From: Atractiella rhizophila
Lineage: Eukaryota
Assembly (NCBI GenBank): GCA_021432655.1
Contig: MU271180.1
Span: 161,183-225,182, forward strand
Length of the DNA: 64,000 nucleotides
Direction: 5' to 3'
This document shows, one piece after another, positions 24,834 through 51,200 of this stretch; within the stretch, counting starts at the first letter, position 1; the number at the start of each line of letters is the position of its first letter. The notes beneath the pieces are model-generated. The model did not search any database. It was not told the origin of the DNA and worked only from the letters and a program-made list of their open reading frames with translations. The translations under genes were made by a program, and so were the position numbers.

Positions 24834-25720
24834 GTTAGGGCTGACACTATGTACAGTCGCCAATGGGTGATGCCTCTGTAGTGGAGATAAACCTAAGAAT
24901 AATATGACATGAGAAGACTAACCTGTAGTGGAGATAAACCTAAGAGAATACTCTAAGGTCATCACCACTACATCTTGATTTATATTTACATATGTAAGGG
25001 CACTACCATGAACTGTAAAGTGTGTCTCATGAAACATATAGAATGGCTGGATCATGAAAGCGACAAAGGGAATAATCAGAAATAAGACAATTGAGAAAGG
25101 ATGTCAAATGAAAACGGTGATGGTGCAGACCGACGAAACGTACAAGGCTTACTGAGCGGCGATTTGTATGAGAAGAGGGAAAGTGGTGATGGATAGACAC
25201 ATGATCCTATGAAGTAGGAAAGGTAGGTCACATGACTTAGGCCGGTGCATTTTGGTAATGTGCAGGAGCAAGCCTGTGTTAGGGCAAACACTATGTGCGG
25301 TCGCCGATGGGCGATGTGTCTGTAGTGGAGGTAAACCTAAGAGAATACTCTAAGGTCACCACCACTACGTCTCGATGTATATATACATAAGTAAAGGCAC
25401 TGCCATAAACTGTAACATACGTTGCTTGAAACGTGTAAGATAGCTAGATCAGGAAAGTAATAAAGGGAATACTCGGAAATAAGATATACTGGGTAGTACT
25501 AGTCAGAAAGGACAATAAGGCGAAAATGGAGACGGTGCAGATGCAGACCGGCGAAATGTACAAGGTTTGCTGAGCGGCGATTCGTGTGAGGAATGGAAAA
25601 GCGGCGAACAGCGCAGACCTGTACAGTGCGACAATGGGTAGGTATGTGATCTCATGATAAGTAAGGTAGGTCACGTGACCTCAGATAGTGCATTTCGGTA
25701 ATGCGTGGGGCAAGCCTGAC
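24834..25720. repeat. Two diverged ~445-bp direct repeats plus a partial internal repeat, each unit with a hairpin GTAGTGG..AGAG-AATA-CTCT..CCACTAC
   Basis: The motif tgtagtggagrtaaacctaag occurs at ~24876, ~24924 and ~25321, and gttagggc..acactatg at 24834 and 25278. Confidence 0.75.
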
Positions 25721-25849
25721 AGCCTGATCCTGGGACCTCGTTTTACCTGCATGCATTCAAGGAAATTGAAGAGAATGTAAGCAGATCCTTCATGTCATGC
25801 GAGCAAGTGGGACAGAGGCGGATGGAGTGGTGTCACAGACACACATGAT

Positions 25850-28800
25850 GAATGGGCAAAGTGGTAAGCTGTGATGCGGAGTGTAATGACAAGACCGTTC
25901 AGGTGATAAGAGGTTCAGTGAGGAAGGAGTGTAAGCGGGAGGGTGGAGAGAGACAAGATCTAGACAATAATAAAAGAAGAAATATTAAGACTGTCACATG
26001 TCTTCCCATCTTGTTCACTGATGGTATGCTGAAGAGAAGGACAACATACCTTAAACACTTCTCTGCTACCCCTCACATAGTCCAACACCTAAATGAGCAC
26101 AGTTCACAGAAACAACTCCCTCCAGGCTGATCCAGATTCCATAGTGGCAATGGGGATTTGTTGTACCAAGTCACAGCTAGGGCTTTGCACCGTCCCGTCT
26201 GTCGATTTTTGTGCCTGAGACGGCGACGGGACGGGTGACCCCGTCCCGTCACCCGCACCGTCCCTGAACACAGGGACTGTCTGATGGTGACGGGACTGTC
26301 ACGGCAAGAAAAGGGGTGCAGACGGATGGGTTTGACGGCGAACACGGGTGTTCAACAAAATGTTCCTTTATTCTGTCCGGCACCACCGGAATATCTCATT
26401 CATGCCATGTTCTAGCCACTAACTACTAATGCCGGCAAGCCTAGGCCTATTTGGCTGGGCGGAAAGGTGATTTGGTTGAGCCGGCTATGGCCCACATGCA
26501 GCTGGCCCACATAAGGTTAGGTTTGTAGTGACCCGGAAGTCCCTTCTGGCCGTTTCGGGCCATGCAAAGGAATGTTTGCTCTGCTGCAAACAAGAAAATA
26601 TGAAATTACGAAAAGCTTGCAGCAAAACAAGCAAAAAACCGGTAAAACAGGTTTAAAACTTAAAATTCATATATACCACCCATTGTTCCCTGTCTGACCC
26701 ATCATGGAAGCGCATGAGAGGGCTGACGGACGGGTAGCACCCATCCATTTATACCGTCTGTCGTCAAAAAATCAAAGTTGTGACGGTGACGGGACGGGTG
26801 GCCAAAAATGCCATCCGTCCGGGACCCGTCACCCGTCTTGACGGTGACGGCGCAAAGCCCTAGTCACAGCACTAGATTGTGGAAGGGGTGAGTTGGTCAG
26901 TTGAGATGCAGCTTCCATGTTCAGAAAGGATGTTGAGAGAAAGGGAAGGCTTGTACGAAGAAAGGGGAGTAACTGCAGAAAATTGGGCAAGGAGACGTTG
27001 AAGATGTTTGATGCGGATGGACTTGTGAAAATTTCAAAGAGGGCAACAGCCCCTAACCTGCACTGCCCCTGGCTGGCCCCTGTGGCAATGGAAATGTGGT
27101 GAGTCACTTTGGAGTCATGGATTAGTTTCAAAGTTTGCTTTAAAGTTTGCCATAGGTTGCAACAAGGTCTTCTAGCACCACAGGAGTGAGGGCATATGAT
27201 GAGCTGTGGACTACTAAGCGCTGGTGGAAGCTTCAAGTGAGTCTTCTTCATGTTATTCACTCACAAGAGTATCATACTCAAATGTTCTCAGGACTTGTTA
27301 CCCAATCACAACGGGTGCATTGGTGCCATCATCCTATATTCGGATGGGACGAACGCAGTGAAATTCGGACAAAAGACAGTTCACCCAATCTATATGTGGC
27401 TGGGGAATGTACCTTTACGAGAGAGGAGTGCTAGTGGAAAGGGAGGGTGCCAACTCATTGGCTTTCAGCCCGAAGTAAGTACAATAGCTTTCCCTATTAC
27501 TTTATGACATCGATGAACGAGCGAGTAGATTTCAGGTACAGAACAGCAGAAAAAAAACAAAAAGTTTCGCCTATATCGTCGCTCGGTCTAAAGTTTTGGG
27601 GATTGTCCTCAGGCAAATACGGCGATTTGAACAAGTGGGTTTCAGGGTTAGAGTTGGCAACGAGTTCGACAAGCTGGTGTTTCCACGCCTTTTCCTTTTG
27701 CAGGCTGATCTTGCAGAGCTGTACGTCGTTTCAAATCATTCGCAATGACATAAGTGACTACTACGACAAGTTACAATATGCTCCTCCTTCTTGGAGTTAA
27801 CTCTAAATTCAGATGTCCTGTTTGCCTTGTCCCCAAAGAACACCTCCACCTCATCTCTCATCAATTCCCAAAGAGAACAGTGGAACAGGCTCAATTTCAT
27901 CTGGAGCAATACCGGCAGACAGAACAGCACGACGGCGCAACTGCAGCGGTTAAAGAGTTGACAAGTACTTCGTCACTACGTCCTGAAAAGGTGCGTTACC
28001 ATCCTCTCTGCAGCTGGATCTTATGCCTCGGTAGTCTGCTTTCTATCGCTTGCGGTGTAGCGATGTTTATGATGCCATTGCAGCGGACTCATTACATGTT
28101 TTTGGTGGATTGTACAAGGATCACATTATGCAGAAGATTTTTGAGAAGCTATCGACAGCAAAGAATGAGAAGGTGGACTCATAGTGAGTAATTGTTTATG
28201 TAGATCCAGTTTGTTTATCAATTTTTATTACAGTCTCCTCTCCCTCCCTATGGCTCTTTACGTCATGTACCCAAACGAGGATTGACTAGCCTGGAGAGCT
28301 TTACCTGCATGGAAATTCAGGATACGATGAAAGTACCTCTCCGCTTCAGTATTGCTGATATCTAATCATAGAATTGGCAGTGCCTAATTGTTGCTATGAT
28401 CGGGATTCTTCCCGCTGAGATCGAACAAGAGGTTATTCCTGCCTTACGATCATTAGCTGTCTTCGAGCTTCTTGTCAAGATGCACGTTCAAGATGAAGAT
28501 CAAATCGCAGTGCTGCGAAATGAGAAGATTTTATCCTTTGAACCTGCTCTCACGGTACATTTCAAGTTTCTGAGGGAGTCTCTAATCCAATTTCCTAATG
28601 TTGGGGTTTAGACACTGCACGAGCATTTTGGCATGTCGACTAAATTTCCAAAGGGTCACCTACCTGTACATTTTGTTGACATGATCAGCAAAGGTGGAAC
28701 GCTGGACCATCAGACCACTGCACATGGGGAGCGAGCGCACCGTCCTCTCAAAGAGAACGTCATCGCTCGCGCTGTTCGCAGTACGATCGATGGAGAAACT

Positions 28801-29618
28801 GAAGAATCAGTGAGTTCACATATTCACAGTTAACTTTAGCTCAAGCAGGTACTCTTCGTGCATTTGAATTGATGCAGCTCCAAGCGATTCAACGACGGTT
28901 TGATGCAGCCAATGCATCGCGGCTTGACCGTGGTGCACAGGAACAACGTTCGCCTCAGCGTGAGACGTCAACTTTCTGTCTCTGCGGCTCGTCAAAGGAT
29001 TTTTATATTAAAGCCTACTTCTGCAAAATAGCAATAGAATTCAACACACGTCAAGATCTTATCAATGCTCTTCGACTCTTCCTCCTTCGGCTGATCAATC
29101 CTTCGACCCCAGTGCGTGTCCGCCAACAGCAGCTGCCGCAGATTGATCGGTCTATGGTATGTCCACCTTCAATTCAAGATAGTCATTGATGTATCTCCCA
29201 GATTTGTGATTACACGCTCTTCCGTTGCCCGTTCAACTCATGGATGGATGAAAGGGAGTACGAAGACCTCATCCGCTGCCACCCTGATTGGCAAACGAGC
29301 GGGAAACCACGCTACGACGATGTAATAATCAGAAATGAAGACTGCACTATCTCTTTTGGGCAACTAGTCCGTTTGTTTTCTTGTCGTGTGGATGGGCGGG
29401 AGTTCCAGCTGTTATTACTTCGTGAATACCAGTGGGTCGGAAGGCACCATTTGTCAGGGATGCCTTTCATCAAAGAACAGGAGGTATTCAGATTCCATCT
29501 TCCCACTAGTATTGTTCGCAGTTGCTATGTTCAACCAGATCCCATTGACGATGGTTTCTACCATGTCAATGATCTCGCAGAAGCAGATCTATTTCTTCGG
29601 TTTCAAAATTTATCCTAA
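25850..29618 (+). pseudogene. Plavaka-family transposase, multi-exon, disrupted by stops and a MITE
   Basis: Motifs RAYDELWTTKRWWKLQ, IILYSDGT..KFGQKTVHPIYMWLGNVP...GKGGCQLIGF, CPVCLVPK, KFPKGH, TAHGERAHRPLK and PRYDDVII are typical of Plavaka transposases. Confidence 0.8.
26178..26862. mobile_element. Non-autonomous hAT-type element (MITE), 685 bp
   Basis: TIRs TAGGGCTTTGCACCGTC / GACGGCGCAAAGCCCTA, a perfect 8-bp TSD GTCACAGC (26170-26177 and 26863-26870), and subterminal GACGG/CCGTC arrays. Confidence 0.92.
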
Positions 29619-29980
29619 TCATTAGGTTCACTATATATTGACTTGAAGTACATGCTCGTGTCGTAAAAATAACATTTTTCAGTCTCATTAATGATCAGTA
29701 CCTAACCGGGACCCATCAGATCATGCGTAGTCCATCATTCAGTCATCAGGCTTGACCATTCCTCTGTAGGTAGTGATCAGTACCCGTTCCCGTCCCCTCA
29801 GCCGTCAGGGGCCGTCAGGAAATGATCAGTCTTTAAAGCTTTTCATGACGCTTACATCGATCCGACTGAACGATGAACGATGTGATTCAAGGCAACTGCA
29901 GCCCGTCCCCTCCAACGAGGGTCCCACCACCAACCTCGTCCACCGCATACGTCACATGCACGTCTCTCACCCATCCAAGG

Positions 29981-31614
29981 CTATAACAGCACGCCGGCAC
30001 CCGCCACTCCCAACCCTACCATCACCGCCCCTCTCCATCCGACCTCCGCCATGCCAGCCCAACCGACCCTAAGCGTAGGAGCCCACGAATGCTCATACGG
30101 AGGAAGAGACGCCTCCGCTTGCGTCCCCTTCGGTCCTGGCCCATGTGTTCTCGTTGCATTAGACTGATTAGCGGCGAGGAGGGACATAGTAAAATTGCTC
30201 GTCAAATTGCTCCTCGCCAACGGCGCAAAGCCGACCGCGGGCGGATCGTACTGATAGACGCTGTACACGTTCTTGAGGAACGTGGCGCCGATCACCCAGG
30301 TGGTGATTGACTTTCCAAAGTGAAGAAGGAGCCGAGACAGCGCGTCTCGTCGGATGATGTGTAGGGACCGAGGTTGAAGTCGTCGGGGGTGATGTTGTAT
30401 GTTCGAGAACCGAAGGTTAGGGGCATGTGTACGGTCGTGTTGCAGGGGTAGGAGTAGTAGCCTTCGAATTCGCCCGTTGCTGGCGCGCTCCCTATCCATC
30501 AATCCCATCTCAGCAAACATCCTCAAGCAGTACCAGTAACCAACAGCAATAGTAGAAAACGACCAACCTGGGATGAGGCTATACAGCGCCTGAATAGCCG
30601 CTGCAGGTCCACCAACGAGTGTGGTCCTCGTATCAATAGCGACATTAGTACTCTTCACCGCCGTCAAATTAGTCCCATTGATAGCCATCCTCTCCAGGGG
30701 TACGACCCAATAACTGTCCAAATTATCGGGAATATCCACCCAGTCTCTCGCTCCCTCATACAGCGTCTTATTTGTCAAGCTGGTAGCCTCCGAACCCCGT
30801 CTCCTCGTACGGCGTCACGTTCAGCAGACGAGAGAAGGTGAAGGCGAAGTTGGGGAAGGGGAGCGCGTCGCGGGAGGTGCGGGAAAGGGAGGCGAGAGAC
30901 TGCCACCATGGTGTTTGGTCGGACGTCGCTAGTGAAGACCAGCCCATGCCTGCACATCCATCCACCACACATCAGTCAGTACACTTTGTCGAAACATAGA
31001 AAGGGGTGGAAGAGAACGACGAACCCATCAACCCGCTCACTTGGCCTTGAATCAGGTCCACTGATACGTTGTCGCACAGTGCAAAGCTCTGTTCTGATAC
31101 ATTGTACCCTGCTAGCTTCACCACGTCCGTGTAGAGCTCTCCGGTCGCGTTCCCAAGGCCGTAACGGATGAAGAAGGGTGTATTTGTAGAGGTGGAAGTG
31201 TTTGAGGAGGAAGGGAGGTACGAGGCGCCTTCTGCACAAGCTGTGCAGTTGGGAGAGGTCACCCACAGGTCTGCGGATCCCGTATCGAGTACGACATTGA
31301 AGGTTTGTGGAGGAGTGCCAATCTCTAACGGTGCCTGTTGCAATCATTCATTCCTAAGTAAGGCAAGACCTCACATAGGAATGAAGGGCGAGGACGCACA
31401 AAGTACTCCAAGTCCGCTTTATAATTCGTCAACTCGACCGTTCCCCCAGTGCTCGACTGCGTCTTCGTCGTCACTGTCCCAGTCCCAGTTCCAGTCATTC
31501 CAGTCCCTCCGCGGCCTCCATCACCAAAGGTAGGCGTGCCGTTCTGCTACCTATTCTTCACCCTCCTCTCTTGGTTCTCCCTGCTGTATTTGGGCTGTAA
31601 TCGTGCCATATTTG
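29981..31614 (-). pseudogene. A1 aspartic protease, copy A: 5'-truncated and frameshifted
   Basis: Lacks the signal-peptide region. The second catalytic motif is DTRTT instead of DTGTT. There is a 7-nt deletion at ~30320 and another deletion at ~30780 relative to copy B. Confidence 0.8.
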
Positions 31615-32135
31615 AGCGTCAGGCGAGAGTTGAGCGATGAGAGCAGCGACAGCTGCGAAAGGACCTGATTTATACCTCCTGCTTTCCCTGAGCTAGAGCT
31701 AGTCCCGTTCGAAGATGGAAAAGCGCCTTTGGCCTGGAGTTGCTCGATGACAGCCTCGAGCGCCTTGACATTTTCCCTGAATATCTCGATGTCGAACTTC
31801 TCGACTCGCGGGAGGGAGCGCTGGATGGACTCGAGCGTGTTGTCGAGTGTGGCGTTGAGCGTGGAGTGGGTGTGAGCGAGGTGGGCGGAGAGCGAGGAGA
31901 AGGTGGAGTCGAGCGAGTGGAGGGTCGATGATGGGGGAAGGAGGGAGTTGAGGTAGATGTGTGGGGGTGAGGTTGGCGCAGGGAAGGACACCTGAAGTTG
32001 TCTTGTCAGGGAAACAGCAGATGTCATATCATATCATAAAGAGGAAGTGGCTCACCACACCAATCGTCGTTTCTGGTCGTTTGCTGGACTTGACCACTTC
32101 CTGGTTCACAAATCAACAACGTGATTGCGACATGA
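31615..32135 (-). pseudogene. 5' fragment of COG7 at the duplication junction
   Basis: Matches 16126-16638 with scattered substitutions and runs out of frame into protease copy A. Confidence 0.8.
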
Positions 32136-32374
32136 GTGGCTGAAGCAGTTTGTACGGCAGAGATGACACAGCGGAGTTGACATTACTCGATTACTGTTTC
32201 AATATCTATATGTACTATACTAATGCTAATGTGCTTTATCTACTACGTAGTATAGAGGAATGATGAATGTCTACCAAAAATCGAGTTGCAACCGAAATAA
32301 GTTAGTTGTAAAAAACGATCGTGCGCTCATAAATTGAAAGCGAAGCTAAGTCTATCGCAGCCGCGATATTTTTT

Positions 32375-35300
32375 CTAACCAAGAGGAAACAGTGCTCGAT
32401 TTCGCGGTTCTTGACTAGTGTCGGAATTTGTAGAGGTGGAGGGTGGGGGAGTAATGTGATCGGGGTCAGCGACGTGCTCTTTACGGAAAGACGATATATA
32501 CGTGTTGTCCGTTGAGACTGAGGATTCGCCTGAGGGCATGACACGTTGCGTAGCAAGCGACTCGATGTTGGATGCCGCAGTATCAGTTAAAGGAGAAGGC
32601 ACCTTTTCGTTGTCGCTGGAGGCCGAGACAGGTGGAGGACTGTCAGATGAGTTGGGAGCGGCCGTATAGGCTAGGTGACGTGGGAGTTCCCTCTCCATGT
32701 CCGGATCCACAACCTCGTTCTTCTTCCCCGTTGCCTGATTGTAGGCCTTCAGAGATAGCTGTCGAATTTCGTGGACCATACGTGGCGGGTCGTTGGTATA
32801 ACTGTGTCCAGGACTTGAAACGTTACAGGCATCAACATCAGCGGGAATTATGAGAACGAAAAAAGAAGTGAAAAGAATACGCACAGAAGCATTATCCTAT
32901 TCCTCTTCTCCCTCGTCCCAATCCACACCTGCTCCTCCACACCTTCAAGCGCCATCTCCACCTCCTCATCCAACAGATCCGGAGGCAAAAAGTGAGATCT
33001 TGCGACTTTATCGAGCATCAGATCATGTCGTCTTTTCACCTTTCCAACCTCGCTCTCCACCTCAATGGTCATCTTCACCGTCCACTCGATCCCATCCAGC
33101 GATCCTCCGTCTGCGAAATTAGTGAAGGAGACATCTCGACCGACGTGACGACCGTTGAGGTAGGACTCAGTTTTGATCCGCATACACACTCGTTTGTCAG
33201 GATCTGAAGTCGGATTGACGAAAACCGCCAAACGGTTACCTGTCCCGTCGAAGACCAGTCTGACGTTCTATCGCCAAGTCAAGAGGAGGATCAGTTAGAG
33301 AGTGTTGGAGGAGAGGATGAGCTACGTACTTCTCTCGGAAACATCTCCGTTGCCTCCACCAACACCCTCTCCAACAGCTCAATACAGAGTCCAAAAGCCT
33401 GCTCCGCCTGCTGCACGCTCCCACAGGTAGCAGCGTCCATATCCTCGAGAGGTATATATTGGAACCCAAACCACTGTTTTCCATTATGATGCGCACAAAA
33501 GATGCCATCCATATTCCCAAGACGGGCTTGAAAGGAGTATTTGAGGAAGGCGTTCCGGATGAGATCAAAGTATTCTCGCTCAAATGATTCAAGCTCGCCC
33601 TCGCGTGTCGTTAGGCGGTAATACATTCCCGTCTACATCGTCGCAACGGATCAGGGAGAAGGGAAAGAGGGATGAAGATAAAGGACGAACCTGGTAGTTC
33701 ATTGGATCTATTCGCAAAGGCATCACAGCCCGCGTTTTAACGTCGAAAGCGGGTTTGGGCAAGTTTGGATTCCAACTATCGAGCTGTGAGCGAACAATGA
33801 GCCGTCCCACCTGTCGTCAATTTTATCAGTCTGCGATTGCCCAAGAGAAGAAGAGGAGGAGAATGAGCGCACTCTAGAATAGTGGTATACATGTTCCAGC
33901 TTCTCTGGTTGCTTCTCCTTCGGGCGGGTGAGCAGATAATCATCGAATTTGTCTCCCTCTGAAGTCAAGAGAGCTTCACCTAGGGTGCCCTAAAAGACCC
34001 TAGATTTGAGACCTACGAGGACTGATCAAAGAAAGGAAACTGACAAATTTAGAGAGCATATTGAACCAATGAACACCCGGCATGGCATCCGCATCCCTCT
34101 CCGTGTCCCACTTCGCCGCATCCACAGCGTACCTCCCTCCACCACCGTCCTCTCCCTCTCCGCCAGATTTGATCCGCACCAACTCCACCGCCGCCGGTTT
34201 CAATGCTCCACTCCCAAACGGCGTCTTCGATTCCCTAAACGAGGCATGTTTCAACATGGAATAGTTCGGTCCGGCCCTACTGAGTGATATGAAGATCTGT
34301 TCGAGAGGTCCTCCGACCTGGCTCGTCGACGAGACGAACATCGGCCCTGCTTCCTGGCGTGTGTGCTCTTTAGACTGCGAGTCTGCTCCTGCTCCCCCTC
34401 CAGCTTCGCGTTCTGACGGACAGCCGACCGGGACGAGGTCGAGGAGCTGCAGCAGTTTCTTGTCGCACGATGGTTTGGTGAAGGATCCAATGACGTCCCA
34501 ATCGACGTCCGCGAGCGGCGGTATCTCTACCGGGATATCAAAGTTCTTCACACCCGTCCTCGGGTCGACGAGCATGTGCAAGCCGGGATTGGTGAGGCAG
34601 CGCTCGAGGGCATGCTTGAGGCGAGGGAGGGTGGGGAAGTTGGGATGGGGAAGAAGGGGTTCGAGCGAGAGTGGCTCCAGCCTCGTGTTGGTGCTATTCC
34701 CATTCGATCGGGATCTGGAGGGCTTTTGAAATTCCATTCCTGGAGCTAGCGGCGGGAGAGACGAAGATGCTGGGTCCTCTGATATAGAACTTGGGAGAGC
34801 ACTACCATTGGGTTCCCGTTCCCGCTTCTGCTTCCCTGCCCTCGGATCCAATCCCATCTCCTTCTCTCCCTCCACTCCCTTCACACTCAGCATCTGCTTC
34901 GACAGCTCAAACAAGAAGCTCGCAGCCATGGGATAACCATCTCCTTCCTGTTGTTGCAGCACGCCTGATTGGTGCCCAATTTCCGAAGAGGCGGAGGGGT
35001 GGCTAGGTAGGAGGGATGCAGGATGGCCTCAGTGCCCCTGTGGAAGTCGGGTATGGAAGTTTTCGGCGCCTTGAAGCGGTCTGTAGATGTCTGTTCTTTT
35101 GACATCCGCACAATGTCAGCAAGGGAAGTTGAAGCGTCGTCTTCATGGCTATGGCTCGTACTCGCATTTTCCATCAATACCGTATCTGTTTGGACAGCCT
35201 TGAATAGGGACCTAATCAACCAACCAACACGTGGAGTTAAATTCTCCCAGTTTGAAGAGGAGAGAGAAAGTGAGAAGGAAAGGAGGACAAACATTCTCTT

Positions 35301-36329
35301 CTCCCGCAGCGCTTTCCTACTCCTCCAAGACTCCGGCTTCAACCTGCTCTGCAGCGTGAAGATCCGACCCCTCAGCCTCTGTATCCTCCTGTCCTTCTCC
35401 GGCGCCACCATCTTCCCCTCCAACACCACTATCTGCTTCCTCAGTTTGGCTATTTTCTTGAGCACCGCTTCTTCGTACTCTTTATAGTCGTCGCTTTCTC
35501 TTATTTCTTCCGCGTCGTCTCCTTCCGCCAATTGTCCATTTTGATATTGCGTGGGAGGTGGTACCGATGTTGATGCTGATGCTGAGGGTGATGTTGATGG
35601 TGCTTGCGATGAAGGAGCGAGCGAATTGATACCCGTACCAAAAGCGCGATACGACGAAAGGCCTTCAGCTCTCCACTGTACCTCCTTCACTCCACTTCCC
35701 TCCTCCTCCAGCTCCTCCTTTCCTTTACTACGTTCGATACCACCTTCCTCACGCCCGCGCTCCACAGCATGAACCGCAAGCCTCAAGAACGACCTCATAG
35801 CCCTCGCCTCGGATCGAAGCTGTTTCTCTATCTGCCGAAGATCGCGCAGGTCGCCCATGATGCGGTGGATGAGGTGTTGGATGTCATGTCGTGTATTTCC
35901 GAGCTCTCCTCCTCCTCTTCCTTCTACTTCTCCACTTGCACTTCCACCCGCAGTTTCTTTTCCCTCTTCATTTTCATTTTCTTTGTCGTTTTCGCGCCGA
36001 CTTCCACTCCCTCTTCTACTTTGTTCTTCAGCAACCCTCCCAACGAATCCACCCCTGACTACCCTACTAGTATGCCGTCCGCCTCTTCCTCTTCTACTTC
36101 TACCAATGGCGGCCATGTGACCCAGCGAAGAAACGGGAGGAGCAGATACCTGACTGGGGAGCGAGGTCGTCATTGGAGCCATGCTAGTGTTGGATAACGG
36201 GACTGGAGAGGGATATAAGGAGGCGAGGGAGGAGGAGTGGAACGCTCCATAGGTATACGTTGCCGTTGGTGTGCTAGTGTGGAGGGAGGCGCTGGTCGAA
36301 GCATGGAGGAGGGTGGAGAGACGCTTCAT
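32375..36329 (-). CDS. PET127: Pet127-like, copy B (multi-exon; apparent 1-nt frameshift in a G-run near 34995)
   Basis: Same Pet127 core motifs as copy A and colinear with it. Confidence 0.85.
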
Positions 36330-37073
36330 TGCGCTTTTTCGACAAAATATAAGAAGTGATTATAATCGTTATGAAAACATTTCTTTCGCATCCGAATATC
36401 AGAGATAGAGATCAGATAGGAATAGCCCTGGATAAACACCACAGTGCAAAAATGTCAAGGAGTCATGGTGTGAGAACATGACTCATATTCAGAGTTCCAA
36501 ATTCACCATTGCCCTTTGACCGCGAACGTTTGAGGTGCTCACGCTACGCAAAGCAAACTAGCTTCAACAATCGACGACGAGAGTTTTGTTTGTTAAGGAA
36601 AACCGTCATCTCAAATATTCAAGTGATCGGGAGAGTATATTTCAGTTGGCGAGCACGGAAAGTAGTTCCTCTGTCAGTATTCTCCTTTGATGGCGGAAAG
36701 GGATGCAAGTGGGAGCGATCTTAATAAGCGCCTGACTACCGTTGAACTTCTTTATAGAGGTCGAAGCGGAGCAGTCTGTTCGCGATCTCGAGTTTCATCT
36801 GTCACAGTGAACGTACGTGTTGACGGAGGAATGGATTCCAAATAGCCTCTACGTCTCTTTGTGGAGAATATTAGTTGTGGTATCCATGAAATATCCAGAT
36901 GGGAAATATTGAGCGTCAAGGCGGTTTGATTGATGAACTCGCCAACATGCTATGCTTTTGAGGATTACCTGCAAACCATGGAAGCTGATGAAATTGGTGC
37001 TAGGACCCATTCGAACTCACGCATTTTTCTTCTTCCTTCAAATTTTTGGCACTATTGACGCTTCCGACCCTGG

Positions 37074-40000
37074 ATGTCAACGATCGCCTTGCAATCTAAC
37101 CCTTTACTGTCCGCCCATATGTCTGCAGATCATTCCGTCAAGATCTTCAAGGTCCCTGAGAACATCAAGAGAGAGAATCCCTTGGGATTGCGAATCCTTT
37201 GCATTGATAGCGGGGACATGCGCTCCTTTGCACCGTACATGCTGGAACACATCATGACTCAAGTTGCACATCTTCTTGATGTGCCTATTGACGAGGAGCT
37301 TCGCCCGTGCGATATATTTGATCTAACCTGTGGAACTTCAACAGGCGGATGGATCGCGCTCATGCTTGGGAGGCTGGGAATGACTGTTCGCCAGTGCATT
37401 ACGGCATGTGAAGAAATCGCGCAGAAAGTGTCCCGAGAAAACACCTCGATCTCGAGTGGCGAGTACGTTTACTCGGCGGAGAAGCTTGAAGAGACTTTCA
37501 TCGCTATCATCCAACGGCATATGAACACTTCTCACGATTCTGCGAAATTGCTATCTATGAAAGATGATTCTGTGCAAGACAGATGCAAAACTTTCATCGT
37601 TTCTACCTGCGGGGCCAATGTCGCCGTTTCTACGGAGTTGCGCACCTACGATATTCACGATGCTGCCTCCTCTTCGGGTTCCCCTGCTTCCACTTGTATG
37701 GTCTGGGAAGCTGCAAGAGCCACTGCTGCACGCCATCCCTTCTTTCCTCCTCTCATCATGGATTCCATTAGTCACGTTGGCCTGGGTGGCGACAACCCTA
37801 CGACAATAGCCCTTGAAGAAGCGAAGCGAATCTGGGGACACGGTGGTGAGATCGCCTGCCTTGTGTCCCTCGGTTCTGGCATTACGCCTGCCATCCAGTT
37901 GTGCCACACTCGAGATGACGTCGCACGAGCATTGGAGACCATAGTCGTGGATTGCTCAAGGGTTTCGAACGACGTGAATGTTATCATGCGAGACCGGAGG
38001 ACGGGGCATTGCTACCACCGTTTCTCGGTCGATACATTCCGAGATTTCAAGTGGCAGGACTGGGAGCGAAAAAATGATGTTGCCGGCTGTACAAAGGCTT
38101 ACATGGAAGCGATGAATCATGACGTGTTGAGTGCTGCTCGATGTCTGGTGAAAGGTACATACCGCATCCTTGGTACTTGCATGCTAACTTTTGTTCATTA
38201 GAACGCGAAGATCGTGTCATAGCATATGGGAAGATTCCTTTACCTCCTCCAACGGCTTGTTATGGGAGAGATGAGGAAGTTGGGAAGGCGATAGAATTCA
38301 TCCTTAAGGACAAGAAGCACATTGCTATTATTGGCAGCATAGGTAACGGGAAGTCTACTGTGGCACTGAAAGTCCTGCATGCAGACCAGATCAAGGATGA
38401 ATTCACAACCGTGATGGATGGTAAGGAAGAAGACTTTCGTTTTTGGGCACGATGTGATGCCTTCTCAACCTTCTCCTCTCTCTCCTCCCACCTTCGCAGG
38501 AACGTTTTTGGATTAGCTCGTGGACGTGGTGACGAAGACCTTGGGACAGTCACACGATATTTGAACACTCACAAGTGTCTTCTAATCTTGGATGATTTTT
38601 GGATCACCGCTCAGCTTGATGAGAATAACCTACAGCCATTCTTTCAGGCTCTTTTTTCAACCAGATGGAGCTCTGGTTCCATTCTTGCCATAGTACACCG
38701 TGGCGAGCAGGCTATGCGTGTGAATGTGCAAGGTGTGAGATTTGGAGCGCTGAGGATTGGAGGCTTGAGCCACCATGTTGCACTGGGTATGTTCAAATAT
38801 ATGCACGTCCCACAGAAAGAATATACCGAGGATGATGCACGGCTAATCAGGACCATTATCGCCAAGCTGGATTATCATGCCATGTCCATCAACCTCTTCA
38901 TTCGTTATGCCAATGCAGAACCAACCAAGGGACTAAAACATCTACTGGAAGAGTGGGACGCAAATAAGGCAAATTTCTTTTCGAGCGAGGAAGAGGTCAG
39001 CCTTGAAGCCTCAATGTCTTTTACAATCAATGCACTTGGTCGCAGAGAAGATCGTGATCTTTGTACTTTTATCCTCGGCCTGTTATCGTGGAGTCCTGAT
39101 GGTCTTCTTGCTGAAGACATTGTAGCAATGGCGGATAACTCCGAACCTCATCGCTCAGGACAGTCTTCCATGATCATCACCTCAATCTTAAGTGCTGGAC
39201 TGGCTGAAGATGTTACTGATGCCCTAACGAATTCTGTTCGAGTGCGTATGCTGGTCCCAATTCGTCGATATGTCAATAGCTTGGTCTTGCGTGCCAATCC
39301 ACCTTCTACAGCCGGGGGGGTATGTCTTGAAAAGTTAGCTGAAGCCCTCATTGATAAGGCTCGTGCAAATGCTCAACGATTCAAGGATGGTGTTGAAAAG
39401 ATGGGACTGCTATCCTTTCGCAGCGATTGTTCCAACCTTGAACATGTCCTTATGGCTGCTTTCGAACACCTCAATGATCTGACAACTGTTCTCAATTTCT
39501 TAGTAGAAATTTGGGAATTTATGCATCATCAAAACCTCCTCTCAGTAGCATTGGTCCAGTGTGCTCTGTCCTACACAACATTTCATCATATGTCTCCAAT
39601 CACAGCCGAATTGACTAGGGCTCTTGGGTCAGTTTTTCAACAGAAGGGAAACACACAACAGGCGCTGAGACAATTTGAAGAGGCGAGGGAGTTGTTTTTG
39701 CTGGTGGGAGATCAGCATGGTGAGGCCCACTGCATTCGTAGCATGGCGGAGGTTGAGCAGTCTCATGGACAGTATAATGAGGCACTGAAGCGGTTGGAGG
39801 AGGCAAAGAAGCTGTATCTGTGGGTTGAAGATCAGCGTAGCCAGGCGCACTGCATTCGGAGCATGGGGGAGATCAAGCAGTCTTGTGGACAGAACGATGA
39901 AGCACTGAAGCGGTTGGCGGAGGCAAAGGAGCTGTATCTGCGGGTTGAAGATCAGTTTGGCCAGGCACACTGCATTCACAGCATGGGGGAGATCGAGCGC

Positions 40001-41968
40001 TGTCGAGGGCAGCTCGAGGAAGCACTAGTACTGTTGGAAAGGGCGAAGGAGTTGTATCTGGTGGTGGAAGATTGGCATGGCCTTGCCCACTGCATTCACA
40101 GTATTGGGGAGATTGAGCAGCATCGTGGGCAGATTCAAGAAGCCATGAAACAATTTGAAGAGGCGAGGCGGGTGTATCTGCGGGTGGAAGGTCAGCATGG
40201 GGAGGCCCGCTGCCTTCACAGCATGGGGGAGATTGAGCGACATCGAGGCCAGATTGGGAATGCCTTAAGACATTTTGAAGAGGCAAGGGAGTTGTTTTTG
40301 CTGGTGGGAGATCAGCATAGTGAGGCTCACAGCATTCGCAGCATAGGGGAGGTTGAGCAACATCGAGGACGGATTGTAGAAGCAGTGCAATGGCTTGAGA
40401 AAGCAATGGAGGTGTATCTGTTGGTGGAAGATCAGTGTGGCGAGGCTCACTGCATTCGTGGCATGGGGGAGATCAAGCAACATGAAGGGCAGTTTGAGGA
40501 AGCACTGATACAATTTGAGAAAGCAATGAAGCTGTATCTGCAGGTAGAAGATTGGCATGGGCAAGCCCACTGCAATCGTGGCATGGGGGAGATCAAGCAA
40601 CATCAAGGGCAGTTTGAGGAAGCACTGATACAATTTGAGAAAGCAATGAAGCTGTATCTGCAGGTAGAAGATTGGCATGGGCAAGCCCACTGCAATCGTG
40701 GCGTGGGGCAGATCAAGCAACATCAAGGGCAGTTTGAGAAAGCACTGATACAATTTGAGAAAGCAATGAAGCTGTATCTGCAGGTGGAAGATCGGCATGG
40801 GCAAGCCCACTGTGTTCGTGGCACAGGGGAGATTCAGCAACATCGAGGGCAGACCGAAGAAGCACAGAAACTGTTTGAGGAAGCCAGGAAGTTGTATCTG
40901 CAGGTGGAAGATCGGCATGGTGCGGCCGACTGCATTCGCAGAGTAGGGGAGATCGAGCAACACCGAGGGCAGTTTGAGGAAGCACTGAAACAGTTTGAGG
41001 AGGCAATGAAACTGTATTTGCTGGTGGACGATTGGCACAGTGCGGCCTGCTGCCTTTGCAACATGGGGGAGATCGAGCAGCTTTGTTGGCGAAATGAGAA
41101 GGCATTGAAATGGTTTGAGGAGGCAAAGCAATTGTATGGCCAGTTGGAAGATTGGCAAATGGCTGCCAACTGCATTCGCTGTATGGGGGAGATCGAGCAA
41201 CATCAAGGGCGGGTCGAAGAAGCAGTGAAACTGCTCAAGGAAGCGATGGGGCTCTATCTGTTGGCAGGAGATCTGCATGGCAAGGCTCACTGCATTTGTA
41301 GCATGGGGGAGATTGAGCAACATCAAGGGCGGATTGAAGAAGCAGTGAAACTGCTTGAGGAAGCGATGGGGCTCTATCTGCTGGCAGGAGATCTGCATGG
41401 TGAGGCTCACTGCATTCGCAGCATAGGGCAGATTGAGAGGCATTGTGGGAGAAACAAGCAGGCACTGAAACTGTTTGAGAAGGCGGACCGGTTGGGTCGA
41501 GGACATGAAGATGTGTACACTGTCACCCGTCGCATTCATACCATGGCCAAGATTGCACACGTTCACAGGTGCACTGAGGTGGCAATAAGTCGATTCAAGG
41601 AGGCGAAGGGTCTTTATTTGGACTTGAAAGATGTTAAGGGTCAACTCAACTGCCTTGAAGACTTGGGTTCTGTTTACATTCAGGACCGCCAGTTCCTAAA
41701 AGCAGTCAAGGTTCATGAGGAAGCAATCGATTTGAGCAGGAAAGTCAGCAGGCACTGTGAGGCTATTGCCAGAGAGAAAATGGTTGAACTACTCCTCTTC
41801 AAACTGTCAAAATACACTGATGTGAACAAGGAACTTGAATATGCCCGTCAGCTTTGTATTAAAAGCTGTGCAACGTCAGGGATACCATTTTGTGTTGTAA
41901 CAATGCACCTTTCTTCATCTCTTCCTATCTCATCTAACATAGATCTATGTCTTAGGGACCAGACTTAA
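37074..41968 (+). CDS. Fungal NLR-like protein: patatin-like domain + NB (NB-ARC/NACHT-like STAND) + ~18 TPR repeats; intron 38155-38201
   Basis: GTSTGG patatin motif. The intron gtacat..gctaac..tag joins the two ORFs in frame. Walker A GSIGNGKST, Walker B LLILDD, RVRMLVPIRRY motif, then 40-aa TPR units. Confidence 0.9.
39605..41764 (+). repeat. Intragenic array of ~18 x 120-bp (40-aa) TPR units
   Basis: Consensus AHCIRSMGEIEQHxGQxEEAxKxFEEAxxLYLxVEDxHGx. Units 8-10 (~40445-40804) and 14-15 are nearly identical in DNA. Confidence 0.95.
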
Positions 41969-43596
41969 CTGCATGTGCCCATCTCATCAGCCCAACAGCA
42001 TACACCGCTTCCCTGCATCTGTCCATTCTTCCTTCTTTCCTATTTCATCTGCCACGGTCAATTCACTCCCTCCGGATCACCTTTGTCTTACCTCTTAGAC
42101 ATGCTTATCACTCTCCTGCAAATGTGTCCTCGAAATTATTCTATTTCTCCCTTCCAAGCCTCCTACATTCATTCGGAAACAGGGCCGAACAAGATGGTAG
42201 AGCGGATCTTTGCGTTAGGTTCGATCTTGAAAATGTCACAGTCAAATTTGGGAACGGCGAAGAGTTTTCAGACCATGAATTCCAAGGAGTAAGGAGTGTG
42301 TTTTCTCGCACATTTCCTCTTCTTTCCGATTGGTCGCAGGCAATCTTTGCCCCTGTTGCCTCATACTCTGTGGCCAAAAATGGTTTTGTCCCTATCACGG
42401 ATAATGAATCGTCATCCCTCGTATCCTTCCATCAAGCTGTGAGCCTTATCCAACTCTCATTTTCCCCTACTACAAAGGATAGGACATGCTTTATCTCATG
42501 CTTGCCTCCTGAGCTGCTCTCCTTCATTTTCAGTTGTCTTGTGGCAACAGGGGATGCAAATTGGAACATCTCCCGCATCTGCAAGCACTGGAGTGTTGTT
42601 TCAGCCCCCTATTGGAAGGAACCTTATTCTGTGTTGAAGAAGCATACACGTTTAAAACTGTATGCTGATTCTGGACGTCTGTGGAAGCAACTCCAGTTTC
42701 GACAATGCATGGATGTTAAGATGGTGGAAGTGGTCATCTTGGGTTCGCCGAATGTTACGAAGGTATGGCTGGACGCATTTTGGAGTGAAGAGGAGGCTAC
42801 AATGGTGTTAAATGCAATTGGGGGCTTGCCAAAGCTGGAGGTTGTAACCTTTGGACATATGGGTTCAAGACAATGGAGGAAGCAGGAGGTAGAGGACTTC
42901 ATGCAGAGGATGAGGGGGACGATTGTACAGCTCTCCATTCAGGCAGCAGAAGACTATTCCTCCTTCTCTCCCTCCTTCATGGCATTAGACAGTCGTCGAT
43001 TACCTCCTGGCTCCATATCCCTAACGCTCTTAACATATCCACCTTTCGTACGGCTCTCCCTCCCACACACTCTCCTTGAACCGAGCCTCACCACCCCGAG
43101 TCCTCTCCCAACCTCGATGTCAAGCTCCCCTCTGCCAGCTCATCTAAAATATCTGACAATCGAGCTTACCGGCACCTTGCCTGATGGAAATACCTCCATC
43201 CCGCCCAGACCTCTCGACTCTAGACCGCTCAACTTATCACGGCTCAAACAACTGACCTACCTCAACCTCGATGGTGGTGAGGAAACTTCGAACCTAGTTT
43301 GCGCCCAGTTTTTCAGGAATCTCAAACATGCCGCAGTGATTGAACATATATCCATTGCTTACTGTGCGGTAAAGTGTTCCGATTTGCTCTCTTTCATCCC
43401 CTGGTTCTTTGAAGTTCAGCGGCTGGAGCAGGCTGGAGTTGGACAGATGAATGAGACAAGTGAACCGGTGTTACGTGTTCTCTTATTCTTTGGAGATTGG
43501 TATCAAGAAGATATTTTGGCTACCAGGACGGTGATGGAAGGGTGTGGAGTAGGCGAGGGCTATAATTCGTCATGGGTAAAGGAGTCTGGAGAATAA
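41956..43596 (+). CDS. F-box + LRR-like domain reading frame (separate gene or last exon of the NLR)
   Basis: ISCLPPELLSFIFSCL...ISRICKHWSVVSAPYW is an F-box, followed by leucine-rich segments (LSRLKQLTYLNLDG). The frame is open from 41956 with no ATG before the F-box. Confidence 0.75.
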   Translation, partial: GPDLTACAHLISPTAYTASLHLSILPSFLFHLPRSIHSLRITFVLPLRHAYHSPANVSSKLFYFSLPSLLHSFGNRAEQDGRADLCVRFDLENVTVKFGNGEEFSDHEFQGVRSVFSRTFPLLSDWSQAIFAPVASYSVAKNGFVPITDNESSSLVSFHQAVSLIQLSFSPTTKDRTCFISCLPPELLSFIFSCLVATGDANWNISRICKHWSVVSAPYWKEPYSVLKKHTRLKLYADSGRLWKQLQFRQCMDVKMVEVVILGSPNVTKVWLDAFWSEEEATMVLNAIGGLPKLEVVTFGHMGSRQWRKQEVEDFMQRMRGTIVQLSIQAAEDYSSFSPSFMALDSRRLPPGSISLTLLTYPPFVRLSLPHTLLEPSLTTPSPLPTSMSSSPLPAHLKYLTIELTGTLPDGNTSIPPRPLDSRPLNLSRLKQLTYLNLDGGEETSNLVCAQFFRNLKHAAVIEHISIAYCAVKCSDLLSFIPWFFEVQRLEQAGVGQMNETSEPVLRVLLFFGDWYQEDILATRTVMEGCGVGEGYNSSWVKESGE

Positions 43597-44106
43597 TGTG
43601 TGTTTTTGTTTCTAATGAAGGACCATCTGTCTAACGTGCCACCGCTTGCAGTGCTATGGAGCAAGTTGGGACTGGACGTCCTGAGGTTCCGCACTAGTTT
43701 CGAGCACGATGACATGAAAGGTGGCAACATTGGAACCGTCAGAGCTGGGTTGGCGCGCCTATCCATTGCGCATTCTTCTTCAACAAAAAGAACACTTGAA
43801 TCTTGAATCAGTACTCAATTTGTACTCAAAGTACTCAAGGCTTGTCGGCATCAGAGAAGGGAAGGGTAGGTAGGGAAGTGAAGGAAAATCATAAATAATA
43901 CTATTAAACACACGTCCTCCAAGTACCTCAAACGTCTCAACCTGATATATTATATGTTACATCCTTTCACTTACACCGATCCGACTGAAGGATGAACGAT
44001 GTGATTCAAGGCAACTGCAGTCCGTCCCCTCCAACGAGGGTCTCACCCACCACCCACCGTCATCCACCACCTCACGCGTCACATGCACCTACATCTCCAT
44101 CCAAGG

Positions 44107-45937
44107 CTATAATAGCACGCCCGCACCCGCCACTCCCAACCCTACCATCACCGCCTCTCTCCACCCGACCTCCCCCACGCCCGCCCAACCAACCCTAAGC
44201 GTAGTAGCCCACGAATGTTCATACGGAGGAAGAGACGCCTCCGCCTGCGTCCCCTTCGGTCCCGGCCCATGCGTTCCCGTAGCATTAGACTGATTAGCCG
44301 CGAGGAGGGACATTGTAAAGTTGCTGGTGAGGTTGCTCCTCGCCAACGGCGCAAAGCCCACCGCGGGCGGGTCGTACTGATACACGCTGTATACGTTCTT
44401 GAGGAACGTGGCGCCGATCACCCAGGTGATGATTGACTTTCCAAAGTCGAGGGTGAAGAAGGAGCCGAGACAGCGCGTCTCGTCGGATGATGTGTAGGGG
44501 CCGAGGTTGAAGTCGTCGGGGGTGATGTTGTATGTTCGAGAACCGAAGGTTAGGGACATGTGTACGGTCGTGTTGCAGGGGTAGGAGTAGTAGCCTTCGA
44601 ATTCGCCCGTTGCTGGCGCGCTCCCTATCCATCAATCCCATCTTAGTAAACATCCTCAAGCAGTACCAGTAACAAGTAGCAATAGCGGTATAGAAAGCGA
44701 CCAACCTGGGATGAGACTATACAGCGCCTGAATAGCCGCTGCAGGTCCACCAACGAGTGTGGTCCCCGTATCAATAGCGACATTCGTGCTCTTCACCGCC
44801 GTCAAATTAGTCCCATTGATAGCCATCCTCTCCAGGGGTACGACCCAATAACTCTCCAAATTATCGGGTATATCCACCCAATCGATCGCTCCCTCATACA
44901 GCGTCGTATTTATCAATCCCATGCTGAAGTAGCCTCCGAACCCCGTCTCCTCGTACGGCGTCACGTTCAGCAGACGGGAGAAGGTGAAGGAGAAGCCGGG
45001 GAAGGGAAGTGCGTCGCGGGCGGTGCGGGGGAGGGAGGCGAGAGACTGCCACCACGGTGTTTGGTCGGACGTCGCTAGTGAAGACCAACCCATGCCTGCA
45101 CATCCATCCACCACACATCAGTCAGTACACTTTGTCGAAACACAGAAAGGGTGGCAGAGAAAGACGAACCCATCAGTCCGCTCACTTGGCCTTGAATCAG
45201 GTCCACTGATACGTTGTCGCACAGTGCAAAGCTCTGTTCTGATACGTTGTACCCTGCTAGCTTCACCACATCCGTGTATAGCTCTCCGGTCGCGTTACCC
45301 AGACCATAACGAATGAAGAAGGGTGTGTTTGTGGCTGTGGAAGTGTTTGAGGAGGAAGGGAGGTACGAGGCGCCTTCTGTGCAAGCTGTGCAGTTGGGAG
45401 AGGTCACCCACAGGTCTGCGGATCCCGTATCGAGAACGACATTGAAGGTTTGCGGAGGAGTGCCAATCTCTAACGGTGCCTGTTGCAACCACTCATTCCT
45501 AAGCAACCCAAGACACCATGTAGGGATGAAGGGGGAGGACACACAAAGTACTCCAAGTCCGCTTTATAATTCGTCAACTCGACCGTTCCCCTCGGGATCG
45601 GTTTCGACGTCGCAGTGCTCGACTGCGTCCTCGTCGTCCCCGTCCCAGTCCCAGTGCCCGTCCCCGTTCCCGTTCCAGTCCCTCCGCCGCCTCCATCACC
45701 AGAGGTGGGCGTGCCGTTCTGCTGCCTCTTCCTCACCCGCCTCTCTTGGTTCTCCCTGCTGTATTTGCTCTGTAGTCGTGCCCTATTCCCCGCGGCCCAA
45801 CGTCCGATTTCAGGTCGAGATTGCCGTTTGGCGGCTGGAGGGAGCAGGGCTGGGTGTCGGACGGTTGGGTAGGATTGGGAGTGGGACGGTGCGGTGAGGG
45901 AGAGGAGGAGGAGGAGGAAGAGTTCGAGCGAGACCAT
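44107..45937 (-). CDS. Secreted pepsin-like (A1) aspartic protease, possibly GPI/membrane anchored, copy B (intact)
   Basis: Signal peptide MVSLELFLLLLLSLTAP, KR site, Gly-Thr repeat, VVLDTGSADLW and AIDTGTT catalytic motifs, WVIGATFLKNVY and a hydrophobic C-terminus. Confidence 0.9.
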
Positions 45938-48291: not shown

Positions 48292-51200
48292 ATGTCCCTC
48301 GTCGACAAGATGCACGACTCGAAGGCTGCAGCTCTGTGGCTCGCAGGCACGACCGCCGTCGTCCTCACTGGCGGAGTCTTGGCTGCTCACGCTCACGCTT
48401 CTGGGTCGCAGACGAATTCGGAAAAGCAGAAGCGGAGGAGGGAGCCAGAGAGGGTGGCGGTAGTTGGGGAGGAGGTGAAGAAGGATGGGGAAGGAGAGGT
48501 CAATGTGAAAGCGGTGGAGTCAGACGCTCTGGTCGCTGATACTACTGGAGGAGCTGTGGACAACGGAGAAGAGGCGGAGGCGGCGGAAGGACAAGAGAAG
48601 GAGAAAGAGTTCTGGAAGAGGATCAATCAGGTTTGGTACGTCCACCTCATTCAACGCCTGCCTTCAAGGTTCTGACATGTGATTCCTGTACTCAGGTCTA
48701 ACAACTCGTGGGAAGAGAGCGCCGCTTCCAAAACTAAAAACCAAAAACCAGCAGTCGATGCTGACATGAGCTTCACCGTCACCGTTCGGGAGCCAAAGGA
48801 TGCCTCTTCCGGTACGACTGACCTCCCACCTCTGACCGTATGCCGACGTTGACGTTCGTTGCATGAGTAGATCCAGACCCGACCGTTTCAGTGACGCTCC
48901 ACTGCAAATGTCTCATCTCTCGCCTCAAGTGCGTCTCTGCCCTCTCCCCTTCTTCGTAGACTGAGACTGCAACTGACGCCGAGCGGGGAAATAACAGGGA
49001 CATGTTCTCCTCCCTCGAAGAGTTCCGGTCAGACACACCGACCATAGACGGCAAGATCCTCTTCGTCGCTCTCGCCGCCCTCCAACGCATGTCAGTCCTC
49101 ACCCCTTCATCCAAATTCCACCCTGCATTTGACATTTGACAGCTGACAAAGCTGACCATCGCCCACTTACAGCCTCGACGAAGATACGAACGAACTCAAT
49201 CTCCATCCCTCCCTCGCGCTCCAAAAGAGCCTGTCGAGCGAATCCCAGCCTTGTCACAAGTGTGGCACATCCAGTGCGTCTCCTCTCCTCTCCCCATCCT
49301 CCCTGACACATAAGGAGAGGAAAACTGAGGCAATCTTTTCGTCAGCTCCAGCGCTTGAAACCGCAGCCGCGACTGAGACCGCGGAAGAGAAATCGGAAGA
49401 GGTGGATGGAATGAAGAGGAGGCGGCTGGAGCTGAGGGTCTTGCATCTTTCCGCTCTCATCAAGTGCATACGAGAAGAATTCGCTTCTGTGTTCGTCTTC
49501 CCCTCTGTGCTTTCGAGTCAGGTGGGTGAGGCTGACGGATGGTCGGGCGGGAAAAAAAAAAAAAAAAGCAGAAGCGGAGGAGGGAGCCAGAGAGGGTGGC
49601 GGTAGTTGGGGAGGAGGTGAAGAAGGATGGGGAAGGAGAGGTCAATGTGAAGGCAGTGGAGTCAGACGCTCTGGTGGCTGATACCACTGGAGGAGCTGTG
49701 GACAACGGAGAGGAGGCAGAGGCAGCCGAGGGACAAGAGAAGGAGAAAGAGTTCTGGAAGAGGATCAATCAGGTTTGGTACGTCCACCTCATTCAACGCC
49801 TGCCTTCAAGGTTCTGACATGTGATTACTGTACTCAGGTCCAACAATTCCTGGGAAGAGAGCGCCTCTTCCAAAACTAAAAACCAAAAACCAGCAGTCGA
49901 TGCTGACATGAGCTTCACCGTCACGGTTCGGGAGCCAAAGGATGCCTCCTCCGGTACGACTACCCTCCCACCTCTGACTGTATGCCGACGTTGAGGTTCG
50001 TTGCATGAGTAGATCCAGACCCAACCGTTTCAGTGACGCTCCACTGCAAATGTCTCATCTCTCGCCTCAAGTGCGTCTTCACCCTCTCCCCTTCTTCTTA
50101 GGCTGAGACTGCAATTAACACCGAGCGGGGAAATAACAGGGACATGTTCTCCTCCCTCGAAGAGTTCCGGTCAGACACGCCGACCATAGACGGCAAGATC
50201 CTCTTCGTCGCTCTCGCCGCCCTCCAACGCATGTCAGTCCCCACCACTCCATCCCAATTCCACCCTGCATTTGACATTTGACAGCTGACAAAGCTGACCA
50301 TGGCGCACTTACAGCCTCGACGAAGATACGAACGAACTCAATCTCCATCCTTCCCTCGCGCTCCAAAAGAGCCTGTCGAGCGAATCCCAGCCTTGCCACA
50401 AGTGTGGCACATCCAGTGCGTCTTCTCTCCTCTCCCCATCCTCCCTGACACATAAGGAGAGGAAAACTGAGGCAATCTCTTCGTCAGCTCCAGCGCTTGA
50501 AACCGCAGCCGCGACTGAGACCGCGGAGGACAAATCGGAAGAGGTGGACGGAATGAAGAGGAGACGGTTGGAGCTGAGGGTCTTGCATCTTTCCGCTCTC
50601 ATCAAGTGCATACGAGAAGAATTCGCTTCTGTGTTCGTCTTCCCCTCTGTGCTTTCGAGTCAGGTGGGTGAGGCTGACGGATGGTCGGGCGGGACAGGAC
50701 TAAGAAGCTCGAGAGACTGGACGTGGATAATGGCATTCCGTTCAAGTTGCTATGGACCTTGTTCCCCCTTGGAGAGTTGGTGGGAACCAGGGATCCCGCC
50801 AGTGAGGAGAAGGTTCGCATTCTCATCCCGTCTCCCTCCCCCGTGCAATTATCTTCGGAGGAGGAGAGCTGATGAGAGGAGTTTGTAGATGTCGTTCATC
50901 GTCAAGAAGGCTTACTACAATGGCACCGAGTACGTTCTCTCCCTACAAGCCCAGAGATGCTCATACTCATCATGATGGGTGGACAGAAACTTTGTCGTTT
51001 CTGGCACCCGTATCGAATGGGTCGGAACGACGTTCGTCAAGACGCTCGTGGAACGTCAGATTGCCTCTTACAAGGTACCGGTCCCTCAATCCTTCCACGG
51101 CAGCACTGATTTCTGTTACGTGTTGTGTTATGATGCATACAGGACTTGAAGCGAGTCCGGACCCTCAACGTCTATCCCTTGCAGCCGGCGTTGCGCGAGA

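Follow-up and report, generated by a model that had tools for sequence, protein, structure and literature searches.

Described fungal NOD-like receptors (NLRs) include proteins in which a patatin domain is followed by NB-ARC and then by tetratricopeptide repeats (TPR) that are highly similar to one another (Dyrka et al. 2014, PMC4986451). That survey found no leucine-rich repeats (LRR) in fungal NLRs, and the word F-box has no occurrence in its main text. Among the NLRs of Sordariales, 8% carry non-canonical domains, mostly at the C-terminus (PMC12258605, 2025); in 12 of the 17 supplementary files of that study, F-box and F-box_5 each have a single entry, in truncated NACHT/NB-ARC proteins, and neither enters the main-text discussion. 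In these proteins, as in plant NLRs with integrated domains, the extra domain follows the repeats and has free-standing paralogues. A different arrangement is that of the SCF (Skp1-cullin-F-box) receptors Skp2, COI1, TIR1, FBXL17 and yeast Rad7, in which an F-box precedes an LRR solenoid. Here we describe a locus of Atractiella rhizophila, lying in a window of 64,000 nucleotides (nt) (assembly GCA_021432655.1, contig MU271180.1, positions 161,183 to 225,182), where an NLR gene abuts an open reading frame (ORF) with an F-box-like motif and a predicted LRR region. An initial annotation had proposed that a short intron joins the two into one protein. The reading that we favour, with a confidence that is about evenly balanced, is that the locus holds two units and not one protein, namely an NLR and a recently decapitated copy of an Atractiella-specific gene family. 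A search of the literature turned up nothing published on this locus.

The upstream gene is a canonical fungal NLR with a patatin lipase effector, an NB-ARC domain and about 15 TPR units, which bears out what had been claimed for it. Pfam matched the patatin domain PF01734 to residues 73–236 of ORF 37059–38201 with 34.5 bits (cutoff 27.7), giving the protein the N-terminal effector domain of an NLR; the patatin exon, counted from the first ATG of this ORF, occupies 37074..38154 of the plus strand. A 47-nt intron read from the sequence at 38155..38201 (plus strand, GTACAT...GCTAAC...TTAG) probably connects the frames of patatin and NB-ARC. The exon for NB-ARC and TPR runs from 38202 to 41968 within ORF 38123–41968 on the same strand and closes with the stop codon TAA at 41966–41968. 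The NB-ARC match is marginal in score (24.2 bits, cutoff 23.5) and contains a clear P-loop, GSIGNGKST, and we take it as the nucleotide-binding domain. The C-terminal repeats matched TPR_12 with 312.7 bits over 13 stretches, and the array at 39665..41437 (plus strand) has a period of 120 nt, 14.8 copies and 77% matches, so that its 40-residue units resemble one another as those of described fungal NLRs do. The order of patatin, NB-ARC and TPR is likewise the one found in the survey of Dyrka et al. A paralogue of the patatin ORF, 78% identical, lies at 21644–22786; the paralogous copy to which it belongs (21644–23598) has the same intron structure between patatin and the nucleotide-binding domain, with donor GTATAT, and its nucleotide-binding domain matches NACHT with 34.4 bits. 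When the tail of the NLR (residues 1095–1281) was used as a query, the sole match was the deposited gene model of this very locus.

The downstream ORF comprises 546 codons from stop to stop (41956..43596, plus strand). As the initial annotation had stated, this frame opens at 41956, and the earliest ATG in it, at 42709..42711, lies past the F-box; no start codon of its own precedes it. Several paralogue gene models, P0032 and P0034 among them, begin at the equivalent methionine. An F-box-like motif was located at residues 180–222 (42493..42621, plus strand), where PF12937 scored 19.3 bits, below its cutoff of 24.3. The distant relatives P0073 and P0076 matched PF12937 above threshold, at 31 bits, some paralogues have a precomputed PF12937 or PF00646 annotation, and the F-box segment of the family profile also matched proteins with clear F-box domains in a representative library. 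An LRR-type region of alternating strands and helices was predicted after the F-box, at residues ~220–530 (42613..43545, plus strand). The AlphaFold2 model, built from a 15-row alignment, had a mean pLDDT (predicted local distance difference test) of 60.5, with block means of 78–93 at residues ~220–330 and of 43–85, mostly 66–85, beyond; it shows a strand/helix solenoid following the F-box, with the alternation placed at residues 245–530. Its best Foldseek matches included COI1, Skp2, TIR1 and FBXL17, with E-values of about 1e-4, and also Rad7; TM-scores (template modelling scores) were 0.2–0.33. Given the LRR fold, these matches and the distant relatives that pass the F-box threshold, F-box-like plus LRR is a fair description of the ORF, and the identification of the downstream frame as F-box/LRR is upheld with a sub-threshold motif and a predicted fold. 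The resemblance to SCF receptors lies in the order of the F-box-like motif and the predicted LRR; the locus differs from them in the low score of the motif, in the low TM-scores, and in a domain of about 180 residues that stands before the F-box.

This first part of the ORF, about 180 residues, aligned with a conserved N-terminal domain of its family in an alignment of the ORF and 14 homologues, and by that alignment the ORF is coding from its first codon at 41956. The N-terminal domain is beta-rich and has no assigned family; a search of the ESM Atlas with these 180 residues gave a best score of 0.83, under the meaningful level. A CT-rich stretch at 41990–42180 was considered as a promoter, but its alignment with the N-terminal domain conserved among the paralogues led us to reject this. 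Also considered was an intron at 42289–42339 (GTAAGG...CAG, 51 nt) combined with a frame-2 mini-ORF from ATG 42194 as a start for the F-box gene; it was rejected because the phases do not match and a contig of sequencing run X6 spans 42262–42662 unspliced.

The family to which the ORF belongs provided the evidence on where it once began. Among 4083 candidates scored, 33 near-length homologues were found, all named Atractiella rhizophila and 34–48% identical to the ORF, which puts the family at 33 annotated members or more, besides many fragments. The 33 proteins are free-standing paralogues, as an integrated domain would be expected to have, and this counts in favour of a fusion; that the family stands alone counts for two units as well. 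The full-length family profile matched the ORF with 711.6 bits over profile positions 25–562, the sole copy in the window. Full-length paralogues have their own methionine 15–85 residues upstream of the point at which the ORF opens. A profile of 16 paralogue N-termini matched frame 1 only (33.5 bits, profile positions 36–67), beginning at S-[TAG]-GPDL, with the stop codon TAG at 41953–41955 inside the match; frames 0 and 2 gave no match (E 0.33 and 0.46). In the printed alignment, 11 of the 16 paralogues have Q in the column of this TAG. Homology to the family thus begins at about 41950–41956, so that roughly 24 profile positions of a complete member are lacking, and its extension upstream of 41956 rests on very few residues. 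The stretch at 41935..41955 (plus strand) reads, in frame 1, TAA at 41935–41937, then ATG at 41947–41949, TCT, and the TAG aligned to the usual Q of the family, and the two intron-like signals of the junction, TCTAAC and the acceptor TAG, double as two stop codons of the family frame. Base composition also shifts at about 41900, where the share of G falls from ~0.23 to 0.03–0.12.

The match confined to frame 1, the TAG at a Q column and the switch in composition near 41900 together fit a family copy that has had its 5' end removed or disabled. We therefore favour two units. The first would be the NLR, its reading frame ending at TAA 41966–41968; the second would be a member of the Atractiella-specific family that lost its own 5' end and has no usable start codon. 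The decapitation may have come about by a rearrangement near 41900, at the composition switch, or by the TAG nonsense codon at 41953 in place of the conserved Q, and would have been recent enough for the 546-codon frame to survive. Any translated product would be an LRR-only protein from ATG 42709, and a fusion protein is probably absent. With conserved columns defined on 24 other full-length family members, the F-box region deviated at 5 of 19 conserved columns, the worst of the 25 sequences, and the LRR deviated at 16 of 92 (rank 22 of 25).

The competing explanation is a real fusion, in which a 59-nt intron is spliced out of at least part of the transcripts and a single protein carries patatin, NB-ARC and TPR followed by the N-terminal domain, the F-box-like motif and the LRR. 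We regard this fusion as unproven and rather unlikely; the observation itself is confirmed. Every sequence feature listed in the initial annotation is present where it had been placed, and the candidate intron at 41897..41955 (plus strand) is exactly as claimed: phase 0, with donor GTAACA at 41897, TCTAAC at 41933–41938 (CTAAC at 41934–41938) and acceptor TAG at 41953–41955. Its removal would link ...GIPFCV to GPDLTAC in frame. The NLR stop codon falls among the opening codons of the frame downstream, leaving zero intergenic space, and this want of a spacer, together with the want of an own start codon, speaks for the fusion, as do the intact ORF and an N-terminal domain that is conserved as in annotated paralogues. 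So does the form of the intron. Its length falls within the range of the other introns at the locus (47–76 nt), and its CTAAC stands 18 nt before the AG, compared with 14 nt in the NLR intron and 17 nt in an intron of the 3' untranslated region (UTR), the best-supported plus-strand introns. Under strict geometry (an in-frame GT..AG intron of 45–75 nt with CTAAC 10–25 nt before the AG), 8 of the 172 pairs of neighbouring ORFs in the window (each ORF 70 residues or longer) qualified, corresponding to 6 distinct junctions, which include both copies of the patatin/NB-ARC intron plus the F-box junction. Looser rules (CTRAY, 40–90 nt) admitted 45 of the 172 pairs, so the junction is unusual only under strict geometry.

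Against the fusion stands the donor, which the initial annotation had rightly called weak: GTAACA lacks G at +5 and T at +6, both of which are present in most likely introns of the window (GTGCGT, GTTCGT, GTACGT, GTGAGA, GTGTGT, GTAAGA and GTACAT, a heuristic collection). We judged that the good branch and acceptor half and the poor donor roughly cancel out. Two of the findings given above for the family also count against the fusion, in that homology runs through the acceptor TAG and the F-box region deviates more than in any other of the 25 sequences.

The same splice is found in a public gene model. A GenBank entry named "TPR-like protein [Atractiella rhizophila]" (P0037, 1169 residues) was 100% identical over 55% of the ORF and was the sole match in a search for longer proteins. 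It reads ...GIPFCV directly followed by GPDLTAC..., which is the 41896/41956 splice that had been proposed. A script check placed its exons at 39717–39719, 39773–41896, 41956–42438 and 42697–43593. The model thus starts with a 3-nt exon, the ATG, and a 53-nt "intron" (39717..39772 together, plus strand) that are cut from the continuous TPR ORF, and it contains an in-frame 258-nt "intron" at 42439..42696 (plus strand) that removes the F-box exactly; the 258-nt joint was not seen in the X6 contigs covering 42262–42662 and 42633–42761. P0037 also goes without patatin and NB-ARC. Since it has neither these domains nor the F-box, it is not the architecture that had been proposed, and its defects deprive it of value as independent support for the splice. 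The joined P0037 is the outcome of gene prediction and relies on the same weak donor; it shares the joint with the fusion reading, though not as independent evidence. The proposed splice accordingly stands in so far as a public model has it, and a single protein remains a proposal, given a flawed model, a weak donor, an unspliced contig and no recurrence.

The initial annotation had suggested an RNA check across 41850–42050, and contigs from sequencing runs allowed a partial one. Six runs contain words of 41000–43800, and contigs of four were examined (X1, X3, X5 and X6). Run X6 has a share of 0.70 of the stretch and near-identical sequence, its kind being unrecorded; we take it as RNA because two of its contig joints, of 52–54 nt, have canonical ends. 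Runs X1, X3 and X5 have shares of 0.06–0.08, and their contigs span 42792–43240 only, which places the junction outside them. A 1018-nt contig of X6 covers 41129–42038 with 0 differences and 0 gaps. It therefore retains the 59 nt, crossing 41897–41955 unspliced, and has no insertion or deletion by which ATG 41903 could be brought into the F-box frame. Depth in X6 was flat at 9.46 over 41470–42033, so that no second contig, spliced or other, lies at the junction. In the contigs of the four runs the 41896/41956 joint was not seen, the single spanning contig being the unspliced one; this counts against the fusion, with the limit that the contig may derive from antisense RNA.

The same X6 contig carries a minus-strand intron of 52 nt at 42040..42091 (GTAAGA...AG, seen as CT..AC on the plus strand), and in this single informative run the antisense-spliced form dominates. 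The spliced antisense transcript overlaps the NLR at its 3' end and the F-box ORF in its 5' part; no long minus-strand ORF accompanies its intron at 42040–42091, and it may be a regulatory or non-coding RNA. On the plus strand, an intron of 54 nt (GT..AG, TCTAAC at 43630–43635) was found at 43598..43651, one base past the stop of the ORF, in the 3' UTR. The X6 contig with this joint also contains 43419–43597, which indicates that plus-strand RNA covers the 3' part of the ORF. Depth in X6 was 4.78 over 42262–42662 and 14–23 further downstream; a transcript start near 42650 was considered for this step and dropped, because contig depths cannot rank gene parts and contigs of paralogues add depth. 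Two stretches, 42200–42261 and 43239–43418, had no cover listed. At position 42963 the window has C, and every covering contig of X6, X3 and X5 has A, a synonymous change (TCC/TCA) in the ORF that may be a strain difference, a near-identical second copy or an assembly error.

The plus-strand RNA with its spliced 3' UTR intron would also suit an independent, working F-box gene. Such a gene would have its own first exon inside the 3' end of the NLR, spliced to the acceptor at 41955, or a non-AUG start; ATG 41780, which is in the NLR frame, could for example open this exon, which would then overlap the NLR coding sequence, and the protein would be free-standing. The intact and conserved ORF, the good branch and acceptor, and the 15–85 residues that paralogues carry before the homologous point agree with this explanation. 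It depends, however, on the same weak donor as the fusion; the NLR-frame tail did not match the N-terminal profile of the family (E 0.46), and the joint is absent from the contigs, in which transcript starts are not visible. We consider it improbable.

Further still from likely is the alternative offered in the initial annotation, a separate gene starting at ATG 41903 and carrying a 1-nt frameshift near GGG 41955–41957, by mutation or assembly error. This ATG (41903..41905, plus strand) is in the NLR frame and not in the F-box frame. Its distance of about 38 codons from the conserved LSILPSF motif is close to the 35 codons found in the paralogue P0009, and there is a homopolymer at the site. 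Nevertheless, the X6 contig runs without a gap across it, which, provided that the X6 data are independent, makes an assembly error unlikely, and the frame-2 peptide obtained no score on the N-terminal profile. The alternative thus proved weak on both counts.

Several observations weigh against two separate units. The 546-codon frame is free of stops, and only 1 of 26 family-conserved N-terminal columns deviates, in a region that cannot be translated from ATG 42709; such an intact N-terminal half fits continued selection or a very recent loss. The nearest annotated paralogue is just 48% identical, from which it follows that the copy is old, as opposed to a new duplicate that was dead on arrival. 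For so old a copy to have kept its N-terminal half undecayed, either its start must have been lost very recently or it must still be translated via an upstream exon. At the junction, the strict geometry is rare among the ORF pairs, it is unusual for two independent genes to abut with zero spacing, and the donors of the NLR's own intron, GTACAT and GTATAT, show that donors lacking G at +5 occur here. As to the transcripts, the RNA status of X6 is a reading from its two canonical joints of 52–54 nt and from nothing else; the spanning contig, having a minus-strand intron, may be wholly antisense, in which case it has little bearing on sense splicing; and contigs drop rare or minor forms.

Searching for further proteins that combine patatin, NB, TPR and F-box, as had been proposed, yielded no second case: among 107 library hits of the family, 20 long or fused ones were scanned and none had NB-ARC, NACHT or TPR, which also counts against the fusion. 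Such a domain was seen only in the locus's own model. In the other long family models, an unrelated neighbour, RhoGAP for instance, or a second family copy has been merged in. In P0058 a family member is merged with a RhoGAP domain protein and in P0038 with a second copy, and P0045 and P0048 are extended far at the N-terminus by sequence with no clear Pfam domain. Partial copies and chimeric gene models seem to be common in the family. Metagenome scans with the family alignment and with the 30 nt just past the acceptor gave no match.

Were the fusion true after all, no fungal NLR with LRR would have been described before it, going by PMC4986451 and PMC12258605, and its C-terminal F-box/LRR would lie outside the architectures of the former. 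It would wire an NLR directly to SCF-type ubiquitin ligation, or present an F-box protein as an integrated bait or decoy; the added module could recruit Skp1/SCF to the activated NLR, or be the bait. The likeness to NLRs with integrated domains lies in the position after the repeats and in the free-standing paralogues, and the difference is that joint transcription is putative here. Under the two-unit reading that we favour, the locus holds a lesson for annotation: the public model splits the NLR, glues its TPR half to a start-less neighbour and deletes the F-box, and surveys of architecture that use such models would miss or miscount this locus. Of secondary interest is the Atractiella-specific F-box-like/LRR family.

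A tandem segmental duplication of about 15 kb (16122–31612 and 31613–45787), with flanks that are ~89–90% identical on both sides, contains the locus in its second unit. The first unit, copy A, keeps the patatin domain and the start of the nucleotide-binding domain (21644–23598), followed by 6.3 kb of unrelated DNA (23520–29851) where the second has the remainder of the NLR and the F-box-family ORF. In this 23520–29851 stretch there is no TPR and no family copy, and ORFs of at least 120 residues had no Pfam match. The next gene, convergent with the F-box ORF, encodes an aspartyl protease (Pfam Asp) in three ORF pieces at 44107–45563 on the minus strand, and is duplicated in copy A at ~29851–31612. 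Four more tandem duplications, with units of ~0.37–2.6 kb and 96–98% identity, are located at 4161–7292, 8334–13522, 13423–14163 and 48422–50694.

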